The notes under the pieces are model-generated. The model ran no database searches. It was not told the origin of the DNA and saw only the letters and a program-made list of their open reading frames with translations. A stretch of DNA of 60,828 bases, filler included, from Jimgerdemannia flammicorona (lineage: Eukaryota): the NCBI GenBank assembly GCA_003990765.1. It is 2 parts of 2 records of this genome, joined end to end, with 100 filler letters (N's around TTAATTAATTAA, not from the genome) between each part and the next. Parts side by side here need not be neighbours in the genome. Positions count along the whole stretch, not along the records: positions 1 to 30,391 come from RBNJ01000446.1; positions 30,492 to 60,828 come from RBNJ01000447.1. The stretch is one strand, 5' to 3'. The translations under genes were made by a program, and so were the position numbers. The stretch's first letter is position 1. Every line of letters begins with the position of its first letter. Positions 2,156-51,974 of this stretch are shown in pieces.

Positions 2156-3253
2156 TTAGGTGCTGTCTGGGTAGTCTTTGATGACATCACCATCGATTGC
2201 ATCATCTCTGATAAAGTAGTTGTCTAGGAAGAGTGGTTTGTAGATTACTTCCCCTTGTTCACTGAGGTAATAATACATTGGGACTTCGTCTCCATCCTAC
2301 AGGATAGCATCATCTGTCTCGTAGGCTGGATAAGGTGTTAGTGGACGAAGGATGGGTGTATTGTCTTCGCTTTCGTCAGATTCACTGTCTGCATACCTTC
2401 TATAGGTTACAGCACTATGAGTTGCAGGATTGTAGTAAGCTGGCAGCTGTGGTTTATATCGCTCATACTCAGGTGGTGGTGTAGTTGGTTCGATCTCGAG
2501 GGCTGTCTGGAGGTACAGATTGTGTTCTCCAGTCTCTTCATTGTAGTTGAAGTAATCGGGAGTGAATACAGGTTGGTATTCGTATCAGTGGTCATTGTCC
2601 CAATAAGTCTCGTATGCAGTTATAAACTATTGCAAGTTCATCGGCAAGTTTGGCAGTATGATCAGGGTTGGCAGAGATCCTTGGCTAGAGGTCATGTCAG
2701 CATCAGAGGGATCATTGTCTTCTGCTTCATCTTCATCAAAGTGGATTATATCATAGATATCCTTCATAGCGTATCCGACTTGAGGCATTTGCAGGATATA
2801 GTCATCAGAGTGTGGGAAGGTTCTGTCTGTGGTCTGGACGTATTTGAGATACTTGTGGTTGAGTTCTTGTATCATATCATCGATTTGACCATAGGACAGG
2901 GTAGCAACCATTTCGCTGGTAGTGACTCGGAGGTGGGGAATAAAGGTATTGTACTCATAGAAGAGTTCTCGATGTTTGCGGGTGATGAGCTTCTGGTGTT
3001 GAGACATCTGGGTAATGTCTGTATCATGGTGGTGTTCAACCATGTCTTCCAGGAGGCGGCCAATCTGGTAGTAGCTTGAGATTTGTCCAATTCAGTGGGC
3101 CTCGCTAAGCATGTTCAGGGCATTCCATTGGGCTTCCACGAAGTAGAGAGGTACCAGGCTATGGATATTCATGAGGGGCAGAGGGGGTGTAGCTTGGTTG
3201 ACAATGGCATTCCAAATGTCAGCACGGATGTGGTTGTAGATCTCAGTAGTCAT
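2156..3253 (-). pseudogene. LTR-encoded accessory ORF, 365 aa, unknown function (3' LTR copy)
   Basis: One frame from ATG (MTTEIYNHIRADIWNAIV) to TAA, 1098 nt, no frameshift. Four internal stops; at least two are sense codons in the other LTR. Confidence 0.85.
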
Positions 3254-3964
3254 ATTTGTGTGTTTGGAAGTTGTGGTTATTGTTTGTTTTGGTTCTCTGA
3301 TTCAATGCATCTCGGTGCTTGGTATATATGCATTTGGTCCTGATTGGTAAGATTCTGTTTGTGTAAATCTTGTGTTCTGTGACTTCGTATTGACTCAGCT
3401 TTGTGTGCTGTGACTTCGGTTTGACTCAGCTTCATGATCAAGCAGGTGATTTCCAGATTTGTTCGGAGGTCATGTGAGATTTCAGTGGCTTGGAGGTTGT
3501 ATACTTACAACTCTCCCCTTCTTAGCTTTCAATGTCCTCATCGGGGCCTTCTAATTTGTTCTAGTGTTGTTACACTATTTGGGAGGTCAAAAGTCTGATA
3601 AGGTCTATTTTCTCAGAAAGTGGCATGCTCATAGTACAGTTACCTAATGTGTTAGATTCATATGTTAAAGGGTCATGTATTCAATGCCATGCGCCGGAAG
3701 TGATTCTGACGTCATTCACTGCTGGAGAATTTCCTCTAAGGAATCTTCTTAAATGTCTATGCCTTGTTTCCCACTAGTAGTATAGGGAGAATAGGCTTGC
3801 TTTCAGTTTTGCTATTTTTTCAGAGGTTTGGTATTCTTGTCTTATTTTGCTAAGTTCTTGGTTTGGTTCACAATAATTATAATATTCAGGAGGATAATAT
3901 ATAGTATGTGTAGATGGGTGTGGAATATTTGGTTCTAGTTGTTCAAGGAATCGTATTCCTGAAC

Positions 3965-4102
3965 TAGATTGGTAGTATTCTGAAGGTTGGTCTTGGGTTC
4001 CCAGATTGCATCATGGATTGGGTAACCTTTCCATTTGACAAGGTACTCAGAGTGGCTCTTGTTGCCACATTTGTTGAGAATTTGTTCAACTTCGTATTCT
4101 TC
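3965..4102 (-). other. Chromodomain at the C-terminus of Gypsy-1 integrase
   Basis: EEYEVEQILNK...EYLVKWKGYPIHDAIWEPKTNL. Confidence 0.9.
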
Positions 4103-7100
4103 TTAGTCATTAATGATGACAGGTGCAGGTGGTTTGGTGGTCCAATTTGGAAATAGCTCATCATCACTATCATTGTATTGCTTGAGATGTTGAACATTAA
4201 AGACTGGGTGAATCTTAATGGTGTCCGGTAGTGCCAGTTTGTAGGAGGTTAGAGAGACTTGTGCAATGACTTCAAATGGTCCAATGAACTTGCTGTTTAG
4301 CTTAGTAGATGGTCTGTACTTGAGGTTATCAACTCGGTATCCTCTGATGTCTAGTAGGATGTTTTCTCCAATATCAAAGGTTTCTTCTTGGCAGTGTTGG
4401 TTAATATACTGTGACTGTTGTTCTTGAGCTTGTGATAAATTCTCAATTGCAATCTGGCTTAGATTGCACATTCGGAGTAAGAATTCTTCAATGGCTTTGA
4501 CTGTGGAGGGTTCTTCAGTGGTTTGGATAAGTGTCAAAGGGGTGTTTGGATTTTGTCCAGTATTGGCGAAGAATGGGGTCATTCCAAGAGAGGCTTATTT
4601 GCTATTGTTGTAGGCAAACTCAACTGCGGTGAGGTGTTCATGCCAATCATCTTGTCTGTAGAAAACATAGTTCCTTAGCATTTGTTCCAGAGTTTGGTTC
4701 ATTCTTTCAGTTTGGCCATCAGTTTCTGGGTGAAAGGCTGTGGATAGTACAAGTTTTGTTCCAAGGTGTGCATGGAGGGCTTTTCAAAAGTGGCTGGTGA
4801 ATTTCGGATCTTGGTCACTGACAATGATCTTAGGAAGACCATGAAAGTGGAAGATGTTATCAAACAAGAGTGTGGCTATGTCTGGTGCTATTACAGTAGT
4901 GGTAGTAGGCACAAAGTGGGCTTATTTGCTGAGATAGTCTATAAAGACAACAATTGCATCTTTTCCATTCTTAGTTTGGGGTAGTTATACAATGAAGTCC
5001 ATAGAGATTTGTTCCCAATTTGCAGATGGTACTGGAATAGGGTAGTGTAAGCCAGATTTTGCTAGTGTTGAGGACTTGTTTCATTGGCAGGTATCACAGG
5101 AAGTGATATAGATTTTGAGCTGATCTGCCATGTGGGGCCAATAGAAGTTTTGGGAGATAACTTTATAACATTTATCAAATCCTAAATGTCCAGCTGTAGG
5201 AGCATCATGACATTCAAATAGAATAGTCCTTCGGAGGTCTCAGTTGTTTGGAACATACAGTCTGTCCTTGTAATAGATAGCATTGTCCTTGAGTTGGTAT
5301 TGATTGTACTGGGTATGCTTGTCAGCATCATCATTGTTCAGGATTTCTCAGAGTGCTTGAGCTTCTTTATCATCAACATATGCTATGATGATTTGTTCCC
5401 TGATAGTGTTGGTAACCAAGGTCAGAGTTTGGATAACCTCTTCGATTGGTGGTCTGGAAATTGCATCGGCAATAATATTTTCCTTACCAGGGTGGTACTG
5501 GATTTCATAGTCAAAGTTGGTGAGGACTTTTATCCATCTGGCTTGCTTTTGAGAAAGGGTAGCCTATATCTTGATGTTGACTAATGACTTGTGGTCAGTC
5601 AATATAGTAAAGTGTGCTCCTTCTAGATATGGTCACCATTTGATCAGAGTGTCTACGATGGCTAGCATTTCCTTCTCATGAGTTGTATAGTTGATTTTGG
5701 CATCATTGAACTTATGGGAGTGATAGGCCACAGGGTGTCCTTCTTGCATGAGCACTGCTCCAAGAGCTAGGTCAGAGGCATTAGTAGTGACTTCATATAG
5801 TAGGGCAGGGTTTGCTGCTTGAAATACTGGAGTGGTTATCAAGGCATCCTTCAGTGCTTGAAAGGCGGTATCTTGCTCAGGTCCCCAATTTACAAGATTG
5901 TTGAAGTCTTTCTCTTATTTCATGGTCCAGGGTTGTTCTTGTTTCTTGCTGTGCTTGGTCATTTGGGTGAGGGCAGTAGCGATTTTAGCAAAGTTGGCAA
6001 CAAATCGCCTGTAATAGTTTGCTAATCCCAGAAATGACTGGAGGTCTTTCAGCTTCTTGGGTCTGGGCCAATCCTTGATTGCAGAGATTTTGCTGGGGTC
6101 CACTTTGATTCCATTTGGAGTGACAATGTATCCAAGGAATTGAATTTCTTTCAGAAGAAATTCGCACTTGCTGAGTTTCACAAAGAGTCAGTTTTCTTAG
6201 AGTTTTAGTAGCACTAGTTCAAGGTGTTCAAGATGTTCTTCCAGGGTTTTGCTGAAGACTAGGATATCGTCAATATAGACAACAACGAATTTGTCCAGGT
6301 ATGGATGCAGAATGGTATTCATCAGTGTCTGGAAGGTTGCTGGAGCATTAGTTAAGCCAAAGGGCATAACCAGAAACTCGAAGTATCCATAGCGAGTTCG
6401 GAAAGCTGTCTTGTAGATGTCTTCTTCTTTCATGGCAATTTGTCAGTAACCATTTTGCAGGTCAAAAGAGCTCATGAATTGTGGGTTGGTGAGCCTATTG
6501 AATATTTCATCAATTCTCGGTAGTGGGCAACAGTTCTTGATGGTCTGTTCATTGAGATCGTGGTAGTCAATGCACATTCACAGGTCTCCTCCTTTTTTGA
6601 CAATGAAGAGGACTGGTGCACCATAGGGTGATACGCTGGATCTGATGAATCCTTGTTCTAGGAGTTCATCAATTTCTTTCTTGAGTGCATCAATTTCTCT
6701 CGGAGACATGTAGTAGATTGACTTGAAGGCTGGTTTGGCATCTGGGATAGTCTTGATGGCATGATCTACTGCTTGTTTGGAAGATAGGCCTTTCGGGAGC
6801 TTCTTTGGAAATATGTCTCGGAATTTCTGGAGTAGTGGTCTGACATGGCTGTCAACTTTGGAAAAATCCTCTTCAGAGTTCTCGGGTTCTCCTTTGGATG
6901 GTCAGATGGAGATGGTGAAGAGAGGGCATTTCTTGGCCAATTTCTTGAGTTATAGCTTGTTGATGTGGGTGATCTTTGGTCCGAGGTCTCTAGAGTTGAG
7001 TGGGTCCTTTTTACCTTGTAGTTTGAAGTTGTGGCATCCTTTCTTGATGGTCAGAGAATGGTTTATCCAATCAATCATGGGGTTCTCTTGTTTTAACCAT

Positions 7101-7596
7101 AGGGTCCCAAGGATGATTTCATTGTCAGGAAGTGGTATGATTTAGAGGGTAACATGTACTTGGTAGTTGCCAATTTGGAAGGGTAGATTGTGGACTTCTT
7201 TGCTAATAACATGTGAGGTTCCATCAGCTGTAGCAACTGCTTGAGTTTGCTGTATTGGGGAGGTGAAGACCTTGAGTCTGTTGGCTGTCTCTTCATTAAT
7301 AAAGTTGCCTGAGGCACTACTGTCTATCATAATCTTGACAGGTGCTCCATTGACAAAAGCCTTAAGGGTGAGCAGTTTGTCTGATCCAATGCTGGTGATT
7401 TCAGTTATAGGAGTCTTTCTTCTATTGGTTCTTCTTTGAGCCAGTTTGTTGACACAAGAGAAGCAATCATCAATTATTCAGGAAGAGTACATTCCAATAC
7501 CATGAGGGCATCAGCCACTTGATACATATCCATCTTCGATCTTCTTGTAGAATTGTTCTTCTTTGCTCATGATAGGTTGGGCTGGGGCCTTATTTG

Positions 7597-8010
7597 ATGA
7601 GCCAAATCCTTTGGATCCTCGGATGGTGGGTAGTAGTTCAGGGACTTCCTTAACTATCAGGGTTGACTTGATTTTTTCAAATAGGATCTGGGTGATGCAG
7701 AAGCCAGTAGGGATCTTGAAGGGTGTCTAACTGTGGTTTCGAATGAGGATAATAATTTCGCCTGTGTAATCCTCATCAATGACTCCTCCTTCTACTGAGA
7801 GTCCTTTTAGCGCTAGGCTGCTGCGATAGCATATTCTTCCAATATGTCCTTCAGGGATTTGGATACTAATTCCTATATAGACTTGTTTGACTTCTCGGTT
7901 GGAAACTGTAGCTTCTTCGGCTGTATACAGGTCATATCCGGCTACTTTTTGACTTCCTTTGGTTGGGGCCTTAGCAGTTTGTCTTAGCTTGACAAAGTCC
8001 AGTATTCTGG
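7597..8010 (-). pseudogene. dUTPase domain of Gypsy-1, between Gag knuckle and protease
   Basis: Five dUTPase motifs: AGYDL, RSSLA, GVIDEDYTGEI, ITQI, RGSKGFGSS. Confidence 0.92.
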
Positions 8011-9996
8011 TGGTCAGGTTGTTGAGGTGGTGCAGAGTGGTAACAGTTGCTCATGTTGCTGTTCGGGGTTTTCGGTTTGGGCAGGTACTGGCCATATGTC
8101 CTGTCTTTTGGCAATAGAAACATACTCTACTTCTTCGAAGTTCATTCCTTTCGCCTTCAGTAAGTTTCTTGAAGATACTGGGCTGGGTGGATTCAGGATT
8201 TCTGGGTGTCCAAGAGGTGGATGTGGAGGGAGCTTGGGATGTTTCATGCTTGGGTTCTTCTTTCTTGGTCCAAGTCCTTTCCTTGTTGTTAAATTGTCTT
8301 TGGGGCAGAATTGGTCCAGCTGTTAGGATTCACTTGACCATGGTCTTGATTCTTGCCAGGCACCATTGTTGGTGGTCACAACCAACTGGGTGGCCTTGTT
8401 CTTGAATTTTTCTAGTAAGCTATTCAGGCAGACTGCTCTTGTACTATTTCGTGCTTCGTCATTGGCAATATATCCTAGGCCAACAGTATTCAGGAGTGAC
8501 TCAAGTTTTGTACAGAAGGTTTCAAATTCTTCTTTGCCATGTACATCAAATTTGAGGTTGCGGAGTTTTACTCGAGATTCGGCAATCATGGTTTCACTGT
8601 GGTATTGAGCAATCATGAGTTGTTTGAGTCCAGGGGCTGCAGGATGGGCTCCGTATCCTGGGGCATTATTTGCTGCATTCTGGGCAACTACTGCAGGTCG
8701 GGTATCCCATGTGAGGGGTTTTTCAGGAAGGGTTCACCACCATTCTTCAGCAGGTCCTCGGAAGAATGTAACAACTTGGCGGACATAGGCTATAGTGATA
8801 GCAAAGAGTTGTTCCAGGGTGTGGTCTTGATTGTTTGTCAGAACATGGTCAGCAACTCGCTCATTAGTCCATTGATTGGCTTCAAAGTTGGTGTCAACTA
8901 CACAAATGAAGCTTTGGACTTCTTGTGCAGTACCATTGAAGGTAGGTAGGCTCAGATTTTTAGTAGGTCGGGTCTGTTCAGCTAAGGGAGTGATAGTTGC
9001 TGCCATTATAGCTACTTGGGCTGTGAGATCAAGAATCTGTTGGTTCACTATGTTGATTGCTGGAGGTGGTTGGACTGCTGGTAGTGGTGTTACTGGTACT
9101 ACTTGAGGTACTGGTGCAGAGTATGATGGGGTTCTTTGGGTCTGTGTAAGTTGCTGGAGTAGTAGTTGTAGATCTGGAGTGAGGGCTTGATAGATAGCTG
9201 TTTGTTGCTGTGTAGGTGTATTCTGTCCTGATGGATGTGTGTTTCCTTCAGTGGTATATCTGGGATCGAATTCGGTGAGATACTCCTCCTCTTCTTCAGT
9301 TTGGTCCCCATGTAATTGGGTTTGCTTGGCGTCAAAGTAGACAGAATCAGTTGTGTATCTGATTTCAGATGGACTTAATTCAAGGTCAAGTTCGGGTTCG
9401 ATATTGGTTTCAGATTCAGGTAGGGCTGTAGCAGGGCCTGCTTCAGGTTTGGGGTCAGGTAGTTGGTGAAGGGTTTCTCTTGCTTCTTCTTTGAGGATAT
9501 GGTGGGCCTTGCTGTTCTGGAATCAGTAGTATAAGGCAGTCTTGGTCCTGGTGCAGTGAAAGTCGGTAGAGTTGAGTCACTTGGCTATAGAGGCTTGGGC
9601 TTTATGAGGAACTAAGGCTAGAAAGACTGCTGCTGGTTGTCCTAGGTCGCTTGGATTTGTGGAGCTGATAAAACTCTTGTTGAGAAGAGTAAAGAAGGCT
9701 TCAATAAGACCTTCTTCATCTTGACTTGCTGGGTGTAGTGCAAGTAGTTTGGTGAATAGGGTTTTACCTATTTGCTGGTTTAACTGGAGTACTTCTTTCT
9801 TTGAATGAAGTTTATCCCACTTGTTGCAGGTATGGAGGTCAAATTGTTCTTGTATGTCAGGTTCAATTCTCTCCAGATTGTCAGATGGTTCAGGATAAAT
9901 TCCAGTTCAGAGGTTGGGCTTTATACCAACTTGTAGGAATTCTCAGAAGGGTTTGTAGCAGGATGAGGAAGCATTTTAAAGTGGAATTGGATTGTA

Positions 9997-10010
9997 AACC
10001 GCTGCTACCA
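9997..10010 (-). promoter_or_regulatory. Primer-binding site of Gypsy-1 (TGGTAGCAGCGGTT; likely initiator tRNA-Met)
   Basis: TGG-starting motif 3 nt after the 5' LTR end; tRNA identity inferred from the TGGTAGC start. Confidence 0.8.
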
Positions 10011-10013
10011 AGT

Positions 10014-12044
10014 TATAAGAGGGTTACTTTTTAGGGTGACTATTATGTAGTTCTGAAGGGTTTTCTGGATATTCTGAATATTCTAGAAGACTGTTTTCTT
10101 TTATGGTCAAGATCAATTTCATATGGAGTATGTCCTCTACACTTATTGATTTCAAGATTGGGCTGATGTCTCAACCAAAGTCCTTTCCTGGACTAGTTCT
10201 GGATGTTCAGGATTTCTCATATTTCAGGAAGTTCAAGAAACTAAGACCAGCTTAGTTGAATTGGTGTATTGCTGCAGACAATACCCAATTAGGAAATTTC
10301 ATAACAGGGTTAGGAGTAGGACCTAATAGGAAGCAGATTTACTTAAGAGTAGTTTGTGGTTTATGGAATAGATTTATTTGCTATTCATGATATTGCTATA
10401 CTAGGAGTAGTTATAAGAAGGGGTATTGTGGGGAAGTATTCAGAAATGTTCTTGTGTGTTCGAGTCTGAGATTCTGAGGTCTGGGGGAGGGGGTATTTAT
10501 ACTAGTGAGGGGCTATCTGGACTATGCTAGATATAGATGTAGCACTAAGTGCTTTGCTGAGTTGGAATGCAGTCATATAGTACAAGTGTGATCTGACATG
10601 TCAAGAGATTATCTGACTACTGAGTCAGTTCACAGTCATGTCATACAATGCTAATCTAACTATACTATGACTGCTAGGCTATTTATGGGTTTAGGCACTG
10701 TCTGGATAGTCTTTGATGACATCACCATCGATTGCATCATCTCTGATGAAGTAGTTGTCTAGGAAGAGTGGTTCACAGATTACTTCCCCTTGTTCACTGA
10801 GGTAATAATACATTGGGACTTCGTCTCTATCCCACAGGATAGCATCGTCTGTCTCATAGACTGGATAAGGTATTAGTGGGCGAAGGATGGGTATATTGTC
10901 TTTGCTTTCATTGGATTCACTGTCTGCATACCTTCTATAGGTTACAGTACTATGAGTTGCAGGATTGTAGTAAGCTGGTGGCTGTGGTTCATGTCGCTCA
11001 TACTCAGGTGGTGGTGTAGTTGGTTCGATCTCGAGGGTTGTCTGGAGGTATAGGTTGTGTTCTCCAGTCTCTTCATTGTAGTTGAAGTAATTGGGAGTGA
11101 ATGCAGGTTGGTATTCATGTCAGTGGTCATTGTCTTAATAAGTCTCATATGTAGTTATGAACTATTGCAAGTTCATCGGCAAGTTTGGCAGTGTGATCAG
11201 GGTTGGCAGAGATCCTTGGCTAGAGGTCATGTCAGCATCAGAGAGATCATTGTCTTCTGCTTCATCTTCATCGAAGTGGATTATATCGTAGACGTCCTTC
11301 ATGGTATATCTGACTTGAGGCATTTGCAGGATATAGTCATCAGAGTGTGGGAAGGTTCTGTCTGTGGTCTAGACATATTCAAGGTACTTATGGTTGAGTT
11401 CTTGTATCATGTCATTGATTTGACCATAGGACAGGGTAGTAACCATTTCGCTGATAGTGACTCAGAGGTGGGGAATAAAGGTGTTGTACTCATAGAAGAG
11501 TTCTTGATATTTGCGGGCGATGAGCTTCTGGTGTTGAGACATCTGGGTAATGTCTGTATCATGGTGGTGTTCGATCATGTCTTCCAGGAGGCGACCAATC
11601 TGGTAGTAGCTTGAGATTTGTCCAATTTGGTGGGCCTTGCTAAGTATGTTCAGGGCATTCCATCAGGCTTCCATGAAGTAGAGGGGTACCAGGCTATGGA
11701 TATTCATGAGGGGCAGAGGGGGTGTAGCTCAGTTGACAATGGCATTCCAAATGTCAGCACGGATGTGGTTGTAGATCTCAGTGGTCATGTTTGTGTGTTT
11801 GGAAGTTGTGATTGTTGTTTGTTTTGGTTCTCTGATTCGACGCATCTCGGTGCTTGGTATATATATATTTGGTCCTGATTGGTAAGATTCCATTTGTATA
11901 AATTTTGTGTTCTGTGACTTCATATTGACTCAGCTTTGTGTGCTGTGACTTTGGTTTGACTCAGCTTCGTGATCAAGCAGGTGATTTCCAGATTTTTTCA
12001 GAGGTTATATGAGATTTCAGTGGCTTGGAGGTTGTACACTTACA
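10014..12044 (-). repeat. 5' LTR of Gypsy-1 (2031 bp)
   Basis: Direct repeat of 1051-3509; TATA (gtataaata on the minus strand) at ~10494-10502. Confidence 0.95.
10691..11788 (-). pseudogene. LTR-encoded accessory ORF (5' LTR copy)
   Basis: Same 1098-nt span as 2156-3253, independently mutated. Confidence 0.85.
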
Positions 12045-12085
12045 TCTACTAAACCTTATAACTGGTAAGGTAGCAGAGAAAGGAG
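12045..12085 (-). repeat. Extreme 5' end of the retroposon head fragment (continuation of 955-1050)
   Basis: taaaccttataactggtaaggtagcagagaaaggag matches 28763-28798. Confidence 0.8.
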
Positions 12086-14088
12086 TATTGGTTCTTTCTA
12101 TCTGTCTATTTCCTTGAGAGTGGTATACAGTGGTCTTGATATGCTAAATCTTGTATTTCTGATATATTATCTTATGGAATCTATTGATAAATTCTGTACT
12201 ATAGTCTGTGGTGATTTGTCTTGGTATCTTATAGTGGCAGATGATTTCTTAGTATAAGAAGTCAGCTATAGAGAGAGCATTGGCTTCTTATAATGCTTCT
12301 GCTTCTATCTATTTGGTAAAGAGGTCTATAATAACTATAATATAGCAGTTTCCTGATAGTATTACTGATAGTGGTCCAATGATATCCATTGTGATATAGT
12401 AGAAGGGGATAGACTCAATTCTTGATGACTTGGGTACCTATCTTACTGATCTTGTTTCTGTTTTTGGTACTTGTCACACTCTTTGACAAATTGGTACAGG
12501 TCTTCTTCTATCTTAGACCACTACATAATTCTTCTTGCTTTATTATATATATTAGTTCCTCCTAGGTATCTTTGTTCATATACTTTCTTCATTACTTAAT
12601 ACTTCTAATATTCAGATATTATAAGCTTTTCTTCTTTTCTGAGTATAGTGTTGTCTAGTTCATTGTTTCTAAGTTCAGTTGATAATGATAATAGTCTAGG
12701 ATTTGAGGTGGTTGGGCATCTTCTACTGTCCAAAGTAGCTGATTATTCCATAGTATAGCTCCTTATTTATATTTAATAGTCTTGATAGGGGTGTTTTGGG
12801 GTATCCTTGAGAGTACATTAGTATTGGTATTGATTTTTCCTAAGCAGTACTTGATAGTACAGTCATACTCTTGCAGCTTATCTGACATATATTTCTTTGG
12901 AGTTCAGAGTGTAGAATAGTCAGACAAGAGTGGAATGGTCTGTTTTAATAGTGAAGTATTTTCTAGCTAGGTAGTAGTAGAACTTATCTACTGTCCAAAC
13001 TACTACTAAGTATTCAAGCTTGTATGACTCATAGTTCTGTTCTGCTTTACAGATATCTTGGCTTGTATAGGAGATGACATATTTATGTCCATCTTTCTTC
13101 TGAGCTAGGACTGCTCTAAGTTCTATAGTACTTGCATCTATCTATAGGATGAACTCTAGATTCCAATCTGGTCTTTTGAGAATAAGTGCTTAGGTCAATC
13201 TGGTCTTAAGTTCATTGAAGGTTTCTTGATGTTTCTTAGTCTATTTAAATTTGTTCTCTTTCTTCAATAGCTTGTAGATAGGTGCTGTAATATTGGAGTA
13301 TCCTTTGATAAATCTTCTGTAGTAAGAGGTCAGTCCAAGAAAGATATAGACTTCTATAGTTGTTCTGGGTCTTGGGTAGGCTACAATAGCCTCAATCTTT
13401 ATGGAATTCATATGAATTCTAATCTGGTTAATAATATGTCCTAGGTAGGCAATTTCCTGAGCTGCAAACTTATACTTCTTAGGCTTGATATAGAGATCAT
13501 ACTTCTTGAGCTTTTTGAGAACTAGCTATATAGTTGATATGTTCCTATATAGTATTACTGAAGATAATCACATTATTAACATAGACAAAGAGCCATTTTC
13601 CAATCTCATTACTGAAGACTCTGTTCATCATTTACTGAAAACTTACTAGAGTATTATACATTCCAAATAGCATTTGCAGGTAGATATAAGTAGTATCAGA
13701 TGTGATGAAGGCTGATTTCTCACTGGTATCTTGAGTGAGACCAATCTGATAAAAGCCTGAGAATAGATCCAAGGTGGTATAGTATTTAGCTTTGTTTCCA
13801 AGAGTGATAAGGGCTGCCTATTCTTCTTGATAATTGTATTGAGCTTCCTGTAATCAATTCAGAGTCTTAGGACAAACTCTCTAGACTTGCTTTTCTTCTT
13901 TAGGGTGAGAACAATGAGTGAAGCTCAGAGGCTAATAGCTTGCTTGATAATTCTAGCTTCTTTCATTTCCTTGAGTTCTGCTCACAGCCATTCTCTGTAA
14001 GCAGGTGGTATAGGTCTGGCTTTCTGGTAGATGAGCTTGGTATCACCAGTGTCAACTTTATAATAGTACTTGGGTTCTTAATTGTAGA
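12086..14088 (-). mobile_element. Heavily mutated Gypsy pol remnant (RT-RH-IN), related to Gypsy-2
   Basis: IDYRKLN, TLDLFSGFYQI, FLGLTSYYRRFI, DASTIELRAVL remnants; 12090-12340 aligns with 29448-29695. Confidence 0.85.
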
Positions 14089-14788
14089 TTTTTTTTTTAT
14101 TATAAAACTAGTAAATAATAGAGAAATAGTTTAGAGTGAGATATAATACTGTTATGGTGGATATGAAGGTCAGTGGTAAAAGGTCAAGGAAATAATAAGC
14201 TTATGTGAATTTTCACAATGGAATAAGCAAGTAGAATAAAGTGTTTTCTGAAGTAAGGTGCAATAGATCTGCAATCTGCCCTCAGTACTGCAATATGCTG
14301 TGGTCTTTATTCAAATTTGAAAACAAAGTTTGGATAAACAAAGACACAGATCTAACCCCAGAATTCCAGAATCGGATGGGTGCATAAGTACCCGAACCTT
14401 GCCCTGATCTAAACAAAAGTCTGAATTAGGCTTTGTTGATTTACACATGTGATGGGCCATTAAAAACCCAATATAGTAACAATCGGAAAAAGGTACCAGT
14501 CATGTGATCTAATGTTATACAAATAATAAACAATGCTAAAAACGGAACTAGACCAATGACATATCACATGTCATCATGTGATTGTCACTTATAGGTTTAA
14601 AAACCTAAAAATCATCGGCACTCAAAGGTACAGGCATCAGGCCTAGAGCCTCATGACTGGAGTGGAGTAGAGCCTCAGCACCAGAGTGAGCGAAGTGAGT
14701 GGAGGTAGACAGGTATCACAGAGTATAGATATGCAGGCATCAGGCCTAGAGTCTCATGCTGGAGATTGTCCAGCGATTTTTCATGTTT

Positions 14789-16820
14789 TTAAACATTGTA
14801 CGGCATGTATGGGCAGTGCGGCCTTCAAGGAGGACTTAGAGAAAAACTGGTATTTGAGACAGTATTAAGAATGGTAAAACCATTCTTCCAGGCAATGATT
14901 GGTCATCAGACAGTCATAGGGAAACCAAAATGGAGCAAAGCAGTACATAGAGTCTTGTCAGGCTATTGATATAGCCATTGGGCCATATTGTATTGGACAA
15001 CAAGCAATGGGGGAGGAAAAGTGGAGTGGGGAATAGGGGGGTGGGAAATAAGGGGAGGGGTGAGAAGAGAAGTTCAGACCTCAAGCCAATCAACCAAACT
15101 CAACTGAGCAGTTACAACATCAACAGGGTATCCTTTCCTGTGAATCAGGAACTCAGCCAAAGACCAACACTTATCAAGCCAATCATGGCGAGAAGAGCAG
15201 AGTAGCGATAGGCAGTGGGCCTCATTCACAATGCATAGATAGAGTGTCTTCCTAGGATGATTGCTCAACCAGTCAACAAACTGAGTACTACGTGGGAACT
15301 TAGCAAAGTGGCCTGTGCAGAACAGTGCGATCTGAATTTCCAAGTCCAGATAATAGCGGACAAGACTTCCCATTTGATATGATGGTGCAGGGGATAGATG
15401 GTACCAAAAATCATAGCCAAGTCTATGATCATGGGCATAAAGACAATAAGATCATCAATATACCAGTAGAACTTTAGCCCGGCTTCGATGACTCAGCTAA
15501 GCAGATGGTCAGGCACTTGCAAGGTGTGCAACTCATGAGCGAAGCCAACAAGGTTGGCAAGATCTGGGGCACAATTTGTTCCCATAGCAATACCAGTTAC
15601 AGAGTAGAAGGAACTAATAGTGGATATAAATGTCACATGAATCATGACTATGCAGACAAGGCCAAGAATGGCTTCAAGCAGCAAAGAGTCAGAGGAGAAA
15701 GCTACCATCAATAAGAAAGTGAGGCAGTCAATGCACTCATCTAACATAATCCTGGTATAGAAGGCAGTAAAATCTCTAGTAGTGACATAGTTGCAATCTG
15801 ACACATCTAGGTAATCTGATCAAACCAGTTGTAGTAGTTCTAACATATCACGTAGAGGTGAATAACATGAATAACCCACATTATAGTGCAGATGGGCCGA
15901 CCACAGATGGAGAAAGCAAGATAGGAACCACGAAATCTCAGTTATGAGAGAGTTAAAAGCACCAATGATAGGGCACCATACCACTCATGCCTCTTTGTGT
16001 ATCTTGGACAGTATGTGAAATACAGGTAACTTACAATTGTTGGGCTCTATGAGGTATTTCCAAATTGGCATATAACATTTGTCACCAATATAGAACTCAA
16101 GAAGACCAAGTAGGTCTAGCCTTACTGATTCCTTAATATTATCAATCATAGAGAGATCATTCATATATGCAGGATCATGAAGAAGGGACTGAAGACCGTC
16201 GAGATAAAGAGCATGTGGAATTATGGTGAACCCTAGATTTTTGTCAGTAAGACAGACAGTAAAGTCATCATGAGTATGGACTCCTTTAAGAAGGCATCAG
16301 AACTTCTTTAGTACAAGCATGCCAGACACATTTATCATGAGTCAGACAGCTTGATTTAAGGTGGCACTTATATGGAGCATAATTTGCATATTTTCCATAT
16401 AATGCGGTAGTCACCATTTCAATGGCACCCAGGCAGAGATCTCTGGGACGTTGTTGGGATTACCTATAGAGGTCCAGAAGGTGGTAAGGTCAAGATGCCA
16501 TTGGAATGATGACAATAAAATCAGGTCAATGGTACTGTTCATCAATGCTGACCCGGGGAGAACAAACTTAGGGCCAAAGTTCAGCATATATGTGAGCTCG
16601 GGGATAAGCCAAGGTGGAGGTATATCAGTAACAAAGCCCTTCTCAGTAAACATCCGAAACTGAGGGATGAAAAACTGACTTAAATGAGAACCAGGAAGAG
16701 AAGATATGAAGGCAAAATTCTCAATTAGTATCAAGGCCACTATCCTACATAGAATGGGGACATCAGGGCCAAACCACACTACCGGGAAGTTATATAAGAC
16801 TTCTGGGCTGAGGACCTCTA
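14789..16820 (-). pseudogene. PLE reverse transcriptase ORF2 (left copy)
   Basis: ORF fragments 16411-16779, 15493-15804 and 15074-15373 encode successive parts of one PLE RT. Confidence 0.85.
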
Positions 16821-27586: not shown

Positions 27587-27590
<4 letters not shown>

Positions 27591-27636
<46 letters not shown>

Positions 27637-42454: not shown

Positions 42455-42460
42455 AGGATC

Positions 42461-45360: not shown

Positions 45361-45517
45361 TATACAGATATATCTTATCTAGTAGTCTGGATATTTATAC
45401 AGTTTTCCACAGTAATAGTTGCTGTCAGGCTCATCATACTTTCTCCAGTACCATTCAGGTTACACAACCTTGGAAAGGCACTTACAATATCGTTTTTGGA
45501 GAAAAGAGACTAGCAAC

Positions 45518-47541
45518 ATGGCGACTGACAGGCAATCTGAGGTACATACTGGGCAGGGCGGCCCAAGTGCTTTTGAATGACAGCAGGTAGGGAGGGGCCC
45601 AGGCCTGGGGGGGAGTATGAGGGGGCTGCTGGCAGGAGGATACAGAAGAGGTGGAGGTATTGGTAGCAGACAAGGGTCTGGGAGAGCGAGCTTTGCAGAG
45701 ATAGTGAAGGGGAGGCAACAGGAGTCAAGGCTGGAGGGCTGGCTGAGGAGGGGCAAGGAAACTGAGAAGGTGGCAGCATATGGAGGAGTAGCCCTTGGAA
45801 AGGGGGACAGTGGAGCTGGGAGAGTAGTGGCTGGGGGGAGTGTGACCACTGATGGTGATGGGACTGCTAATCTGGAAAAAAATCCAGATGTGATGGCTGT
45901 TGGCGAGGCTGAGCGACTGGGGCTTGGAAGACAAGAGAATTTGGCAGATGGTGTGATAGGCCTAGCAGTGGCCCCATTACTCAAAAAATCAATCTCGGCA
46001 TTCGCAGTTACACTGTGCTTCTGGGGCTTAGCGGTGATGGCAAAAATGGTACTGGGGCTTATTGCTAAGCAGGTGGCAGGAGCTGTGTCAGTGAAGTTTT
46101 TGAAGGGCCTGGAGAGTGTGAAGGTGGGTTTTGAGGAGGTTGAGCTACTGGAGGAGGCATTGAAAGTTGGCTTGGTGGTTGGGAAGGTGTGTGTTCCAAT
46201 GGTGAGATGTCTGAAATGGGATCTGTGGATGGTCCAACTGCTGGTGAAAGGAGTGCCATGGTGACAGCAATGGAGATGAGAAAGAGAGTTGAGGATATCA
46301 TAGCAGAGTATAGAGAGGTGGTAGATATTGGATTCAGGGTCTGGAAAGGGACCTCGCTCAGAACTGGGGATGTGGATATAAGGATTCAGCTGACTGGGAA
46401 AGAAGCTACTGGGAAGGCAGGGGATTGGCCTGCAGTGATGGTCTGGAGAGCAATCTTGTGTAAGGTTATGAGGGTGAAAGGAAGTGAAGAGGAGGAAGAG
46501 GATTTATTGGAAGCACTGGAAGAATTGGATGGTGCTGTGGAGTGGCGAGCAAAGGCTTGGAAGGCTTTCGTGGAGTTAGCGCACCTGGAGGTAGTGGATG
46601 GAAAGAGGATTCGAGTGGACAAGATGCAGTGGGAAAGGGCTCAGGGGCATAAGAGATAGAAGAATCTGCTGGCGAAACTGGGGAGCAGACCACAGGAGGT
46701 TGTGAGCAAGATGGCAAGTGTGGAAGGGGCCAAAGCAAGTGTCTGGGCTGGTGAGAGGAGTGGGAATGCCGGGGAGGAGACAGGGAAGGTGAAGGAGGTG
46801 AAGATTATTGACCCATATGCTGATGGCACCCTGGAGGTTTGGGATGAGGTCTGGGAGGGTTCTTCCACTCCTTCCCCTCTTATCAGGTGAGGCCCAGCTT
46901 CCAGAACCAAGATGGTGGAGGACATGACAATGCTGGGGACCCATTGTATGAAATTCAGCATTCCAGAGGTGATGAACGGGGGACATGTGGTGGCAGCTGG
47001 GGAGGAGGAACTGGTGGATGTCCTGGAGGTACAGGATGAGGCTGCAAGTGCTGGAGCTGACACCACAATGCTGGAGGGAGGGAGGCCGGCGACCCCTGGA
47101 GGGGAGGAGGTGGGGAACCTACTTTGGATGTGCAGGATGATGAATAACCTGGCGGCAGAGGAGTTGGGGGAGGTGGACTTGCGAGTGATGAGTGATAAGT
47201 ATTGGATGTAGATCTTGCCGGGAGATGAAGTGATGATGGTGCTGAAGGCAGAAATTCTTGCAGTGTATCTGGAGGAGGAAGGGTATGAGGTGGACAAGGA
47301 GCAGGAGGTGGAGATGGCAGTTGTCACTGGGGAGAGGGCTGAGTATTGTTGGACCAAGCATCATGGATTGCAGCTTTGGCAGGAGGCTTACATTGAGTAC
47401 TGAGAGGAGTTTGAGGAGAAGGCAGATGGGGAGATAAATGAGCTGTTGGCTGGATTGGAGGCTCAGAGGGCTGAAGAGGAGGAGGTGATGGCAGAACACA
47501 ATCTTGACATGACACAGGAGGAGATGAGCATGGAGCAGTAG
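45518..47541 (+). pseudogene. LINE ORF1
   Basis: ATG at 45518, Gly/Glu-rich fragments, stop just before ORF2. Confidence 0.7.
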
Positions 47542-47571
47542 AGATTGACTAATAACAAATCGTATTTCATT

Positions 47572-50500
47572 ATGAACAGTACAACCAACATTTTTTCTTT
47601 GAATGTGAATGGGCTACAGGGCACTGTTAGATGTAGGAACATTTTTATTTGGCTGAAGGGATTGGAGGCCAATCTCTTCCTTTTGCAGAATGTCAGGTGT
47701 GAGGATGACTCTGATAGGATGGAATGGACAAAGAAATGGGGTGGCATGGCAATTTGGAATGGCAAGGTTGGGATTCTGGTGTGGAAAGGCAGAGAGGAGA
47801 TAAGAGATGTGAGGAGCTGGGGGGAGAGGCTGGTCTGAGGTGAATGGATTCATGCCAGCTGGGAGCCAGTTACAGTTGGCTCCTGTTACTGCCCTGCTGT
47901 AAGGGGGGAGCATGTAGATTGGGTGAAGGGTCTCAAGGAGAGTGGGATCCTGGCAGAGGCTGGAGTGGATATGCTTGGGGGAGATTTCAATATGATTCAG
48001 AATATACAGATGGATAGAACTGATGGAGGACAGGGTGCTGAGAGCAGGAGTGGGGGGCTGGCAATGTGGGAGGAAGTCGAAAGATTGAGAGTGCTGGTAG
48101 ATGCTGGTAGGGAGCACTGGGAGGATAGGAGGGTATATACACATTGGGCTGGAGGCCTAGGGACAAGGATCGACTGGATTCTGACAGCCGACTGTTGGGG
48201 CCAAGATGTTTGGAAGTCGCTGGAGGTGGAATGGTGTCTATGGTTGGATCACTGGGGACTTTTGGGACAGGGGCACTTTGGGGGAAGTGGGGATGGGCCT
48301 GGACATTGGCACCTAAATTCCTCCTTGTTAGATGATGAGTCCTGGTGGGAGGAGTGGGCTAAAGACATTCAGCTGAGGGTGGAGACCTGGTGGCAGGAAG
48401 GTGCCTCGATTGGGGTTCAGTGGATGAGGATGAAAGAGATGGCCAGGATGTACTGGAGCAAGGCTGGCAAGGAGGCAGGGAAGCAGCGAAGGCAGAGAGT
48501 GCATTGGGCTTCTACTAGATTGGCTAGGCTTCTGGAGGAGTGGGCGAGACTGGCAATGGTGGAGGGAGAAGAAGATGGGAGAGTATTGAGGGCGAAGATG
48601 GAGGTTGGGGAACTACAACAGGTGCTGTGTGAAGAGGAAGAGACAAGGGTGCAAAGCTTGATAGCATGGCTTCGTTGGCAGGGGCTGAAGGAATGGGAGA
48701 GGCCTTCCAAGTTTCTCATGAGGATCCTTAGGGCGAGAAGAGTACAGCAACAGTGGGAGGCAGTACTTGACTCGGATGGTGCACTAGTGCATGGCATACA
48801 GAATATTCTTGGATCACTGAAGGAGCAGTGGAGTAGACTATAGAGTGAGGAGGAGGGTGGGGCAGATGCTACTGCCATTGACCAAACATTGGAGGATTGG
48901 CACCCACCACAAGTTGAGAGACTAGGTGACCTGGTGATACTGGTAAAGGAGGAAGAGATCCACCAGGTTCTTGCTGCGACAGCCTCAGGGACAGCACCTG
49001 GGGAGGATGGCCTACCCTGGGAAGCATATGGTTAGAGTCCCAGGGGTGATGGGAGAGTTGATGGCATTGTGTGACTCTATATTGCCAACAGGGAGATGGG
49101 TGGGGGAGCAGGATCTTGGGCTGGTGACGCTGCTTTATAAGAACAAAAGAAGGTGAGAGGATTGGAAGAACTGGTGGCCAATAATGTTGCTGGATATGGA
49201 CAGAAAGTTGGTGACTAAGGTGGTGGTTGTGAGGCTATAGAAGGTAGTCCAGCAAGTTGTAGGTGTTGAGCAGAGTGGATTTGTGGGCGGTCGGCTCATT
49301 AGAGATGGCACAGCCTGGGTATATAGAGTTATTGAAGGGGCTAGAGCCTGTGGATTGGATGGGTGACTAGTCTTCTTAGACCAGGAGAAGACTTATGACT
49401 GGGTGCAATGAGTCTGGCTGGAGAAAGTACTGGATAGAATGGGGGTTCCAACCCAATTTCAGTCAGCAATGATCAGCTTACTGGTAAGGAGTAGGGCTGC
49501 ACTCATGTGTAATGGGCATAGAGGGGTAGCATTCCCTCTGGGTAGGGGGGTGCCCCAGGGAGACCCACTGTCCCCCATCTTGTATGCTCTTTCCCTGGAA
49601 CCCCTGATGGACAGACTTAGACAGAGAATAGGGGGGCTCTCTATCTATGGCATTGGGTGGAAAGTTCTGGCCTTTGTGGATGACATGGTGGTTGGTTTGG
49701 GATCAATTGCTGATGTCGAGGAGCTCAAGAAGGCAGTGGAGTGGTATGAGGAGAACTCTGGGGCAAAGCTGAATTGGCACAAGTGTGAAACAATGGTGCT
49801 GGGCAATGGCCTGGTGGGAGGAGAAGTTATAGGAACTATTGTCCCCACCAGTGAGGCGGTGCAATACTTGGGCATCTATTTGTCAGTCTATGGATTGGTT
49901 TTGCCCAGGCTTTGGTAGGAGCAGCGAATTGGAATTTGGGAGGAGGACCTGTGGGGCTGGGGGGGATGACATTTTTCTCTGGCAGGCCGGGTCTCGATTT
50001 TGAATGTATATTGGCTGCTGAAACTGTGGTATTTGGCTTATCATCTGGACTTCCCAGTCTGGGTGGTGAAGCAATTGGTGAAGGTGGCCAAGGGATGGAT
50101 TTGGGCTGGCAGACAGGGCCAGATTGGTTGGGAGACCTTGTCCCTACTGGTGACAAGAGGGGGTCTTGGGCTGGTGGACTTTCCCAAATGACTATACTGC
50201 TTGAGGGCATGGTGGCTTAAGAGGGTGGTGGAGTTGTGAGGAGGGGATTGGGTGCCCCTGCTGCAGAAGATCTGGGAGAGGCAGTCATCACTGAGAGGCT
50301 CAACTGGTGATCTTCTTGCTTTGGTTGGACTTCAGAACACTGCACAATTGCAATATAAAGGTTTCTGGTCAGGGATAGTGGAGGGGGCACACTGCATTAG
50401 TATTCACTAGCAGGGGAATGAGGGGGAAGAGGCTTGGGACCTGGCAATGTGGAGATGGGATGGTATACTGCTGGGCAGAGTGCCTTTACTTGAGTTCGAC

Positions 50501-51218
50501 ATTGGTGATAGAATAGAATACCAAAGGGGACCAGGCCAGGATATGTAGCCTAGCAGTTGACAAGAGGTTGGAATTGGAGAAGAGTGAGACTGATGGTATT
50601 TGGATCTGGAGTGCCGCAGTATGAAAATGGATGCCGTTGAAGTACTGGGTGGTCTGGTGGCATATGCTGAGGAGGAATGTATTGCTCAACTTTGGCTCAG
50701 GGCACCTTATCATAGGGGATTGCTTTGACTATGAGGAGTGCCATAATGTAGGGCAGGAGGGGGGCTTTGTACAGATGCCAGAACATTGGCTAGAGGAGTG
50801 TGAGGTGTTGGGAGACTTTTGGTGGGTCATTGGGGACCACTTGGGAGTGAGGCATAGGAGAGATGAAGTACAGGAGAGGTGGGAGGACTTGAGAGATCGG
50901 TTGGTAGGCAGGGTAGGAAAGGAGTGGATTATCTTAGGCTGGGCATTGGCTATTTGGGTTGGGCTGGCCAGTCACTGGCTGTTTGATTTTGAGGATGAGA
51001 GGTGACAGAGCTTGGGGAGCTGGTTGTCATGGTGGTAGTGGCTTATGGAAGACACCTTGATAGACTGGTGGCTTGGTTGGGAGCTGCAGGGGGGTTGGAG
51101 GCGCCACTTGGTGGAGAAAATCTGTGGACAGAGTGGTGGGAGAGTTGGAGTCATTGGTGAGAGGGTGATTTTTATTTGTAAAGGGGTGGGGAGGGGCTCC
51201 CCAATGGGGATCGGATAG
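47572..51218 (+). pseudogene. LINE ORF2: APE endonuclease and RT
   Basis: SLNVNGL, GGDFN, RIDWIL, DHW; APGEDG, LDQEKTYD, GVPQGDPLSP, AFVDD, YLGI. Confidence 0.93.
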
Positions 51219-51458
51219 TAGGTGGTGATATTGTATATTTATTCATAGACTGGTAATAAAGATGGAGTCCAAATAACTATAAAAAAAAAAAAAAAAAAAA
51301 AGCAATGGTTGCTGTGTCTGGTTACTATACTATGTATTCATGTCATCTGGCTAAGTTACTAATTGTTCACATCATCTGGCTAAGTTATAATTCAGGTGAT
51401 ATGTTTTGGTTTATTACATCAGCCTCTACTAAAGGATAGTCTGTCCTCAGACTGTCCT

Positions 51459-51974
51459 TTAGTCATCATCTCAGTGTAGATAGGTATCTTCTGTATCAAT
51501 ATCCATTCCATCATCTTTGTCATCTGTACTATGATTGCTCAATTCCAAGAGTTCTTCTTCTTCTTCTGGGAACAGGATTTCAACAGCTTTGATGATGCTC
51601 AGGTAACTGACCAGGTTCATTCTTTATACATCATATCAGGGGAATTGTGCTTGTAACAAGGCTGCAGAATTGTATTTATAAAGAGTGTAGAGCCTATCTG
51701 TAGTAGTGATATCTCTTCTTGATAGTTCTGTGGTATTTCTGATGTATGTTTGTTCTGGGGCTGGAAAATTCTGCAATTGTTCTCTAATTGCATAATGGGT
51801 CTGAAGTTGATAGATCTGTAACAATTATCTGGCCAGGACAAGATTCTCTTGATGAATCTGAATTCTCTGGAGAGTGTTCCCATTGACTTCTCAGAATTGG
51901 GGTAGAGGAATCAGTACTGATTGAAATGAGCTGAGGACAAGAGTCTGGAGGTGGTTGTCAACTCTCTGATTCAT
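51459..51974 (-). pseudogene. Accessory ORF of Gypsy-3 (171 aa) between integrase and PPT
   Basis: ATG overlaps the integrase end; 516-nt single frame MNQRVDNHLQ...IYQLQTHYAIREQL...DRLYTLY, with acidic tail. Confidence 0.75.

Follow-up and report, generated by a model that had tools for sequence, protein, structure and literature searches.

Complex retroviruses are distinguished by their accessory genes. The non-structural genes located 3' of pol/env include tas/bel-1 and bet of foamy viruses and nef of HIV/SIV; in Tas, the part that binds the target precedes an acidic C-terminus with an activating role, while nef contains the polypurine tract, so that part of this gene belongs to U3, which illustrates that an LTR boundary can cross a 3' gene. 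The sag gene of MMTV, a retrovirus of vertebrates, lies inside U3 and encodes a type II membrane glycoprotein. To our knowledge, few LTR retrotransposons carry accessory genes, most of these being Env-like or enzymatic, and in fungi they have hardly been studied. In bdelloid rotifers, the same ORF3 types are reported from different LTR-retrotransposon lineages, several of them with a dUTPase; these ORF3s are Env-like proteins or enzymes of the GDSL esterase and DEDDy exonuclease types (Rodriguez et al., 2017, PMC5408684). Pfam has matched none of these domains in the present proteins. Fungal Gypsy elements have been drawn with an 'add. ORF, unknown function' (Novikova et al., 2010, PMC2864245, legend to Figure 3), and brtn is described as the extra ORF of Boty/BcGypsy1 (Porquier et al., 2021, preprint). 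By description only, both resemble the elements reported here in being fungal Ty3/Gypsy elements with an extra ORF, some with dUTPase and chromodomain; in contrast to the present case, the passages in question mention neither an ORF inside the LTR nor a lineage-spanning family. Our literature search has returned no description of the present ORF family, which is no proof of its absence from print, and no paper that pairs 'ORF within the LTR' with 'LTR retrotransposon'.

The window, i.e., the whole repeat-rich stretch of 60,828 nucleotides that was analysed, contains four extra ORFs belonging to three Ty3/Gypsy families (Gypsy-1 to Gypsy-3, hereafter also G1 to G3):

3253 to 2156, minus strand: 3' LTR copy of the Gypsy-1 extra ORF, 365 codons with 4 internal stops
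11788 to 10691, minus strand: 5' LTR copy of the Gypsy-1 extra ORF (LTR positions 260-1357 of 2032), 365 codons with 7 internal stops
27107 to 26295, minus strand: Gypsy-2 extra ORF, 270 codons, 4 internal stops
51974 to 51459, minus strand: Gypsy-3 extra ORF, 171 codons, 5 internal stops

A first-pass annotation had placed the four ORFs and their peptide motifs at these positions; the ORFs are confirmed, and a search for eleven peptide motifs has located all of them as stated (11/11), the minus strand being the sense strand of the elements. When the four ORFs are read through with stops written as X, each contains between 4 and 7 decay stops. Those at codons 209 and 223 are common to both Gypsy-1 LTR copies, so that the inserted copy may already have carried a truncated ORF, and the full protein may accordingly be dispensable in cis. 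Searches of the window with family HMMs and three-family HMMs have yielded no further copies; a third, Gypsy-1-like fragment at 297-957 keeps the first ~20 ORF codons and then diverges, and was set aside as uninformative.

The two Gypsy-1 copies are found in the 5' and 3' LTRs of a single complete element, each ORF lying wholly within its LTR. This element is a complete chromovirus (12047 to 1053) with 2,032-bp LTRs, a polypurine tract (PPT), a primer binding site (PBS) and a 5-bp target duplication, GTAGA, at both ends of the whole element:

10016 to 12047, minus strand: 5' LTR, 2032 bp, starting with TGTAAG and ending with ..CTCTTATA, the PBS-like TGGTAGCAGCGG directly after it
LTR position 166: CCAAT, upstream of the ORF ATG (260)
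LTR positions 181-190: TATA-type TATATATATA / TATATATA, upstream of the ORF ATG (260)
LTR position 1547, window 10494-10501: TATAAATA box, 190 nt downstream of the ORF
LTR position 1670, window 10373-10378: AATAAA, downstream of the ORF
3513 to 10015, minus strand: internal region with gag, zinc knuckle (8329-8054), dUTPase (8050-7514), protease (7477-7145), RT (6442-6200), RNase H (5914-5636) and integrase SH3 (4594-4106)
4102 to 3938, minus strand: chromodomain, E 8e-17
1053 to 3512, minus strand: 3' LTR, ending with ..CTCTTACA, the polypurine tract AAGAAGGGGAGAG just before it

The 3' LTR shares 93% identity with its 5' counterpart and is interrupted by a 412-bp retrocopy at 1540-1951. In both LTRs, TATAAATA and AATAAA are present 3' of the ORF, and from these motif matches, which set the boundary, we infer that the Gypsy-1 ORF lies within U3. 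It resembles in this respect MMTV sag, a sense-strand protein gene wholly in U3 and hence in both LTRs. Such a Sag-type placement is found in Gypsy-1 only (LTR 260-1357 of 2032, with the U3 boundary taken from motifs), and the present protein differs from Sag in being devoid of a hydrophobic segment and of any Pfam match (E up to 10), and in having a host that is probably a fungus.

The other two elements are represented by the following features:

52033 to 53494, minus strand: 3' part of Gypsy-3 pol, with RNase H (53494-53099) and integrase core (52521-52426)
52173 to 52033, minus strand: C-terminal SH3-like piece of the Gypsy-3 integrase, at the end of this pol part
27590 to 28803, minus strand: retroposed insertion bearing a poly(A) tail, target duplication of 15 bp, CATGGATGAGTAGTT (plus strand)

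The ATG of the Gypsy-3 ORF (51974) precedes the stop codon of the pol frame, a TGA at 51960-51958, by 14 nt, i.e., the ORF overlaps the end of pol and occupies the env position; ~40 nt past its stop, AGTAGAGGC TGA TGTAATAAACC resembles the PPT and LTR start of Gypsy-1. The Gypsy-2 ORF begins ~660 nt past the end of integrase (~28950) once the retroposed insertion between them, which is foreign to Gypsy-2, has been subtracted. An Ile codon at 27035-27033 of this ORF corresponds in position to the start Met of its homologue P0010, and TATAAATA occurs at 26125, 170 nt past the ORF stop. A sensitive self-comparison has revealed no LTRs of Gypsy-2 or Gypsy-3 in the window. The earlier description 'env position or inside U3' stands for Gypsy-3 through the overlap of its ATG with pol, and for Gypsy-1 as regards the LTR, with U3 assigned by motifs.

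We consider it probable, at roughly 0.6, that the ORFs derive, as decayed copies, from a single old, hitherto unannotated accessory gene of a dUTPase-carrying, probably fungal Ty3/Gypsy group. This gene would be located on the sense strand at the 3' end of the element and would encode a conserved N-terminal domain, predicted to be all-helical, followed by a lineage-specific acidic tail. In Gypsy-3 it would start within the last pol codons and end just before the LTR, whereas in Gypsy-1 the polypurine tract lies upstream of the gene, whereby the whole gene would have become part of U3 and been copied into both LTRs.

Judged from sequence conservation, each of the three ORFs is a conserved coding sequence. 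Every one of them has intact homologues, 57-91% identical, all of which are unnamed metagenome proteins and constitute a biased sample, since open frames alone get called as database ORFs. For Gypsy-1 these are P0006 (128 aa, intact, 91% identical to ORF residues 1-128) and P0005 (247 aa, intact, 63-64% identical to residues 115-364). Gypsy-2 has five intact homologues that are 61-71% identical by BLASTP and, when aligned with the copy in the window, match it at 57-75% identity; the five of Gypsy-3 show 65-77% identity, two of them being full length (171-172 aa). The suggested resemblance to abundant uncharacterised Glomeromycotina proteins has not been borne out, with 2-5 homologues per family, all unnamed metagenome ORFs, among billions of proteins. 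The six-repeat protein P0007 (E 3e-7 over a 40-residue motif) was judged a short repeated-motif match and rejected as a Gypsy-1 relative. Scans of metagenome contigs with the G1 and G2 alignments have confirmed no locus, and scans of viral contigs with G3 and G2 have likewise detected none.

Regarding the relationship between the families, the ORFs might instead be three unrelated lineage-specific reading frames whose helical N-termini and acidic tails are alike by composition and convergence, an explanation that we regard as rather unlikely. Pairwise BLASTP is non-significant (E = 0.56 for G1-G2, 13 for G1-G3 and 1.2 for G2-G3), as is hhalign, both for one family against another (E 0.088-0.22, probability < 1%) and for two families against the third (E 0.026-0.081, probability < 2%). 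Ungapped diagonals between families have given p 0.02-0.68, and phmmer with G1 against 1.84 billion representatives has retrieved neither G2 nor G3 proteins. Between families, the C-terminal parts are without any likeness, and an A/C-rich coding strand is common to all sequences, which also favors independent origins. Against this stand the leave-one-family-out HMMER tests, in which a profile was built from the untrimmed intact proteins of two families and the third was scored, under four MAFFT modes. The G1+G2 profile has assigned 9.2-12.8 bits to three G3 proteins (P 3.4e-6 to 4e-5), the G1+G3 profile 7.3-10.3 bits to two G2 proteins (P 3e-5 to 2e-4), and the G2+G3 profile 21.3-23.3 bits to G1 (P 2e-9 to 8e-9), so that the third family has been recovered in 3/3 rotations (P 2e-9 to 2e-4) across all four aligner modes. 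Reversed-sequence controls have scored about 0 bits or below (-1.3 or lower where reported in the four-mode test), and the real score has been reached by only 0-3/3000 global and 0-1/3000 local composition-keeping shuffles.

Real proteins have provided a further null distribution, for which the leave-one-out profiles were scored on 177,635 PDB sequences. In two of the three rotations, those with G1 or G3 left out, the third family outscores every one of these sequences; with the G1+G2 profile, the G3 protein P0014 has obtained 15.0 bits compared to 13.3 for the top PDB sequence. For the G1+G3 profile, G2 scores 8.9-9.8 bits, which is below the top 15 PDB sequences for the same profile. In one automatic alignment (A7), G2 and G3 are out of register, and G1 then scores 5.4 bits only. 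A six-frame scan of the window has returned the left-out family as the top match outside the training families in 3/3 rotations. The cross-family alignments begin at residue 1, the start Met, and remain collinear over ~100 residues with 1-3 short gaps. The proposal that the three ORFs form one distant protein family is thereby upheld by the leave-one-family-out profiles as calibrated against the PDB sequences. The near-gapless N-terminal alignment claimed beforehand is reproduced by MAFFT over ~100-125 residues and is above chance by these profiles, not by pairwise BLASTP; significance has been reached by leave-one-out HMMER and missed by pairwise BLASTP and hhalign.

A common ancestral gene is also in line with the features of the protein. 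The N-terminal domain comprises ~100-125 residues, in which conservation is concentrated, and carries a signature in which a Pro of the loop following helix 1 precedes Y-x-I-G-x-x-L, with [AD]-[RK]-[KL]-x3-[LI]-[FY] coming last. AlphaFold2 models of G1 and G3 are all-helical and agree in their helix-loop-helix order; both are of low confidence (mean pLDDT 52 for G3 and 50.5 for the G1 N-terminus), too poor for fold searches. In the ESM Atlas, P0009 gave a poor model (pLDDT 0.35) with no match >= 0.9, and P0014 (pLDDT 0.76) gave feature matches of 0.93 only to unnamed clusters with < 170 shared features, its structural TM being <= 0.37; these two models have not been counted as evidence. The last third carries a net charge of -16 to -18 in 6/7 proteins (P0001, P0005, P0009, P0010, P0014 and P0015), the exception being P0006, which consists of the N-terminal domain alone (net +1). 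The C-terminal tail is lineage-specific, strongly acidic and aromatic-rich, and probably disordered. In these seven proteins, which cover all three families, Kyte-Doolittle means taken over stretches of 19 residues peak at 0.57-1.08, below the level of TM segments, and no TM-like segment has been detected. The acidic C-terminal regions without a TM segment noted in the first-pass annotation are thus corroborated, and since no signal peptide or membrane anchor is seen, its view that the protein is not Env holds as well.

It appears improbable that the frames owe their openness to composition or persist as dead relics, for example of an env or a captured host gene, which would have ceased to yield a functional protein and be kept for cis-acting functions of the U3 or 3'-UTR. 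Opposite the Gypsy-1 ORF, the antisense strand likewise has a nearly open frame, with 3 stops among 366 codons in one copy and 4 stops in the other, indicating that composition alone lowers the stop frequency, and two of the stops in the Gypsy-1 ORF may predate its insertion. Furthermore, no known domain has been matched: hmmscan of 11 proteins (P0001-P0004 and seven intact homologues) against Pfam has found no family at E up to 10, DUF1016 included, which also leaves the loose YhcG/DUF1016 likeness suggested earlier unsupported, and profile searches of the PDB with five alignments have found nothing < E 0.05. The best PDB matches, namely a spectrin repeat (E 0.052), wax-worm hexamerin (0.12), tissue factor (0.13) and ATP synthase b (0.26), were read as long-helix noise. 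However, the intact homologues share start and stop at 65-75% identity, a protein-level likeness exists between families whose DNA shows none, the conservation is focused on the N-terminal domain, and neither a TM segment nor any other remnant of Env is present.

A mobile helical module exchanged horizontally between chromovirus and non-chromovirus lineages, as the first-pass annotation had proposed, finds little credence: the gene does occur both in a chromovirus and in elements without a detected chromodomain, its place relative to the LTR differs between elements, and the order of likeness is mildly discordant, as RT places G1 nearer G3 (41-49% identity, compared to 31-35% between G1 and a G2-like copy) and the ORF places G1 nearer G2 (23-26%, compared to 16-19% for G1-G3), but such low identities are unable to order the families, three families are too few for a tree, a shift of the polypurine tract alone would account for the differing position, and the N-terminal ORF domains (15-26% identical) are far more diverged than the RT pieces of the same elements (31-49%), which is what a rapidly evolving gene of old vertical descent would give and nowhere requires transfer.

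For the proposed accessory gene, expression could proceed via a subgenomic RNA or, in Gypsy-1, via the CCAAT/TATA pair 70-95 nt upstream of the ATG, in which case the transcript would end at the LTR poly(A) signal. The product may be a soluble regulator or adaptor, whose helical domain would bind a target and whose acidic tail would recruit host machinery, and its most likely role would be to activate the element's own promoter or to counter silencing. This layout of an N-terminal domain followed by an acidic C-terminal third matches that of Tas, with the activation role being a prediction in the present case; there is no Pfam-level sequence likeness to Tas, Bet or Nef, and the present elements differ from their viruses in being retrotransposons without env. 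More speculatively, and in our view doubtful as a whole, an ancient fungal Gypsy clade may have possessed its own regulatory gene as a counterpart of tas, nef and sag, across which the LTR boundary of the chromovirus moved, such that every LTR, solo LTRs included, would be a self-contained gene with CCAAT/TATA, ORF and poly(A) signal, its product activating the promoters of the family or blunting silencing in trans.

If Gypsy lineages with RTs only 31-49% identical have retained a protein that is neither an enzyme nor Env, this would imply a lasting function in the life cycle of the element, and the family offers a concrete candidate for studying the ways in which retrotransposons of fungi regulate themselves or escape silencing. 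An ORF embedded in U3 would further allow thousands of LTRs per genome to each encode the protein. This element family has been found to be very abundant in soil metagenomes, with 942-8717 DNA contigs per run in four runs from three studies.

The window has been found to hold a nest of decayed retroelements in AT-rich background DNA, and the extra open reading frame (ORF) that each of three Ty3/Gypsy families carries after integrase is real, with all motifs reported for it by the first-pass annotation recovered at the positions given, though on the minus strand.

Extra ORFs of the three Gypsy families (internal stops read as X)
3253 to 2156, minus strand: Gypsy-1 extra ORF, 3' LTR copy, 365 codons, 4 internal stops
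11788 to 10691, minus strand: Gypsy-1 extra ORF, 5' LTR copy, 365 codons, 7 internal stops
27107 to 26295, minus strand: Gypsy-2 extra ORF, 270 codons, 4 internal stops
51974 to 51459, minus strand: Gypsy-3 extra ORF, 171 codons, 5 internal stops

Public metagenomes contain intact relatives of each ORF as predicted proteins, all unnamed or termed 'hypothetical protein' and encoded on contigs of 0.7-2.4 kb: two for Gypsy-1 (91% identity over residues 1-128; 63-64% over residues 115-364), five for Gypsy-2 (57-75% identical in alignment) and five for Gypsy-3 (65-77% identical, the full-length ones keeping the same start and stop). The likeness to DUF1016 and to Glomeromycotina proteins that was suggested earlier has gained no support. 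Neither the ORF proteins nor their relatives match Pfam at E up to 10 or the PDB. The acidic C-terminal region and lack of a transmembrane segment noted earlier have been borne out, the last third being strongly acidic in 6 of 7 proteins scored (the exception, P0006, is a Gypsy-1 homologue consisting of the N-terminal domain alone) and a TM-like stretch absent from all seven. On the plus strand, the antisense frame over the two Gypsy-1 copies (2156-3253, 10691-11788) is nearly open: out of 366 codons, 3 are stops in one copy and 4 in the other, and ATG-started ORFs of 220 and 165 aa lie there. The A/C-rich composition of the sense strand is the probable cause.

The three ORFs probably form a shared family, in the sense that their N-terminal domains are homologous, to which we assign a probability of about 0.7 on the basis of profile tests, one kind of test. 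Profiles built from the untrimmed intact proteins of two families (four MAFFT modes, HMMER) have been scored on the third: Gypsy-2 plus Gypsy-3 gave 21.3-23.3 bits for Gypsy-1 (P 2e-9 to 8e-9), Gypsy-1 plus Gypsy-2 gave 9.2-12.8 bits for three Gypsy-3 proteins (P 3.4e-6 to 4e-5), and Gypsy-1 plus Gypsy-3 gave 7.3-10.3 bits for two Gypsy-2 proteins (P 3e-5 to 2e-4). Reversed sequences, where reported, reached -1.3 bits or lower, and the real score was matched by 0-3 of 3000 global and 0-1 of 3000 local 12-residue shuffles. When the HMMER E-values were checked against real proteins, the 177,635 PDB sequences, the best of these scored 16.2 bits versus 21.3 for Gypsy-1 in the first rotation, and 13.3 bits versus 15.0 and 10.3 for the Gypsy-3 proteins P0014 and P0015 in the second; in the third it scored 15.6 bits, and the Gypsy-2 proteins (8.9-9.8 bits) fell below the top 15 PDB sequences. 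When the window was scanned in six frames, nothing outside the training families scored better than the left-out family in any of the three rotations (its iE 0.097, 0.9 and 0.0018/0.0063). One automatic alignment of Gypsy-2 and Gypsy-3 was out of register and yielded only 5.4 bits. The cross-family alignments are anchored by the start Met and collinear over ~100 residues, with P26, Y62, I64, G65 and L68 (Gypsy-1 numbering) invariant, and low-confidence AlphaFold models of the Gypsy-1 and Gypsy-3 proteins show the same order of a helix, a 15-residue loop with a Pro motif, and further helices.

The customary comparisons count against a relationship: significance was reached neither by BLASTP between families (E 0.56, 13 and 1.2) nor by hhalign (E 0.088-0.22 between single families, 0.026-0.081 when two were set against the remaining one). 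Ungapped diagonals between families gave p 0.02-0.68, and phmmer with the Gypsy-1 query found no Gypsy-2 or Gypsy-3 protein among 1.84 billion representatives. Gapped scores against shuffles (p 0.001-0.03 for Gypsy-1/Gypsy-2, 0.006-0.05 for Gypsy-1/Gypsy-3, 0.12-0.83 for Gypsy-2/Gypsy-3) and single-family HMMs (p from below 0.0003 to 0.2) are each only suggestive of a relationship. The family claimed earlier is retained as probable for the N-terminal domain; the C-terminal parts of the three families show no likeness.

A mobile module exchanged between lineages, as had been proposed, has found no support: the ORF domains are 15-26% identical across families and the RT pieces of the same elements 31-49%, which would be accounted for by a gene that was already present in the shared ancestor of the three lineages and evolves faster than RT, leaving transfer unneeded. 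For the ORF to be placed differently with respect to the LTR, it is enough that the polypurine tract has shifted; in retroviral replication, the sequence between this tract and R becomes U3.

Both Gypsy-1 copies belong to one complete minus-strand element (12047 to 1053), flanked on either side by GTAGA and bounded by direct repeats (12047 to 10016, and 3512 to 1053 with a 412-bp insertion) that are 93% identical, start with TGTAAG and end in ..CTCTTACA. The polypurine tract AAGAAGGGGAGAG precedes the 3' repeat and TGGTAGCAGCGG follows the 5' repeat, and the internal region carries gag, zinc knuckle, dUTPase, protease, RT, RNase H, integrase and a chromodomain (E 8e-17). The ORF occupies LTR positions 260-1357 of 2032, with CCAAT (166) and TATATATATA (181-190) 70-95 nt ahead of its ATG, and TATAAATA (1547) and AATAAA (1670) 3' of it in both LTRs; judged by these consensus motif matches, it would lie within U3. 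A metagenome contig (run X2) joining 1050 to 12059 is the empty site of this insertion, in the integrase of a Gypsy-2-like element (12048-14090 and 958-1052, both minus; RT, RNase H and the N-terminal part of integrase) that Gypsy-1 has split. Gypsy-1 is represented a third time, at 75-76% identity, by the fragment 297-957 (minus), which spans the 3' end of the internal region and the beginning of the LTR and retains the first ~20 ORF codons (MTTEICNY..) before diverging into a Gly/Ser-rich frame.

In Gypsy-3 the ORF follows RNase H, the integrase core and an integrase C-terminal piece; its ATG, at 51974, precedes the pol-frame stop by 14 nt, and ~40 nt past its own stop stands AGTAGAGGC TGA TGTAATAAACC, like the Gypsy-1 polypurine tract and LTR start. 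This puts the Gypsy-3 ORF inside the element, at the env position; of the two placements given by the first-pass annotation, that one holds for Gypsy-3, and the LTR one, with U3 as read from motifs, for Gypsy-1. Gypsy-3 breaks off ~160 nt past the ORF stop, where a LINE-like element on the plus strand ends in poly(A). Between the integrase end and the ORF of Gypsy-2 sits a poly(A)-tailed retrocopy of 1.2 kb (27590-28803, minus), which has a 15-bp target duplication, and TATAAATA lies 170 nt past the ORF stop, much as in Gypsy-1; no second Gypsy-2 LTR was found within the window. The retrocopy, which may be a non-autonomous retroposon, has a 90% identical inverted copy 5 kb away (32488-33675, plus) and related pieces at 14-23 kb.

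The Gypsy-1 LTR pair (1053-3512 versus 10016-12047) differs by 138 mismatches, of which 134 are transitions, with 38% of CpG, 15% of CpA and 1% of CpT sites changed; this fits methylation-linked or RIP-like decay, and differences between the window copy and metagenome contigs are likewise mainly transitions. Because stops at codons 209 and 223 are common to both LTR copies, a strict need for the protein in cis is disfavoured; given such transition-heavy change, parallel hits could have produced a shared stop, which is unlikely for both. The gene lies on the sense strand at the element's 3' end, inside the LTR in Gypsy-1, and encodes a soluble protein that combines a predicted helical domain with an acidic tail, possibly expressed from a subgenomic RNA or the U3 CCAAT/TATA pair. 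As this layout resembles acidic activators such as foamy-virus Tas, the protein may act as a regulator or adaptor, e.g., in promoter activation or anti-silencing.

The host is likely a fungus, as the AT-rich background and the S29 retrocopy described below suggest. Extra ORFs of unknown function have already been drawn in fungal Gypsy elements (PMC2864245; Porquier et al. 2021), and ORF3 types common to several retroelement lineages are described in bdelloid rotifers (PMC5408684). A literature search, figures and supplements aside, returned no account of this family, nor of any fungal retrotransposon with an ORF embedded in U3.

Among further features of the window, a 4.3-kb inverted duplication (14089-18379 and 23183-18893; 86% identity) with internal direct repeats of 400-700 bp holds no detectable Pfam domain. 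Domains of dUTPase occur in three different elements (8050-7514, minus; 54949-54569, minus; 35079-35333, plus), in Gypsy-1 between zinc knuckle and protease. The element that truncates Gypsy-3, GC-rich (51-52%) and located at ~45500-51300 (plus), has an RT domain on the plus strand and terminates in poly(A) at ~51300, which makes it a probable LINE; a partial copy of it, inverted and 67% identical, occupies 57770-60475 (minus). A processed retrocopy of ribosomal protein S29 (uS14) mRNA (1540-1951, plus; ending in A25) is inserted exactly at the Gypsy-1 3' LTR TATA box with the 16-bp target duplication GAGGGGGTATTTATAC, and among PDB sequences it scores highest against fungal S29 proteins (90.8-87 bits), above insect and mammalian ones.
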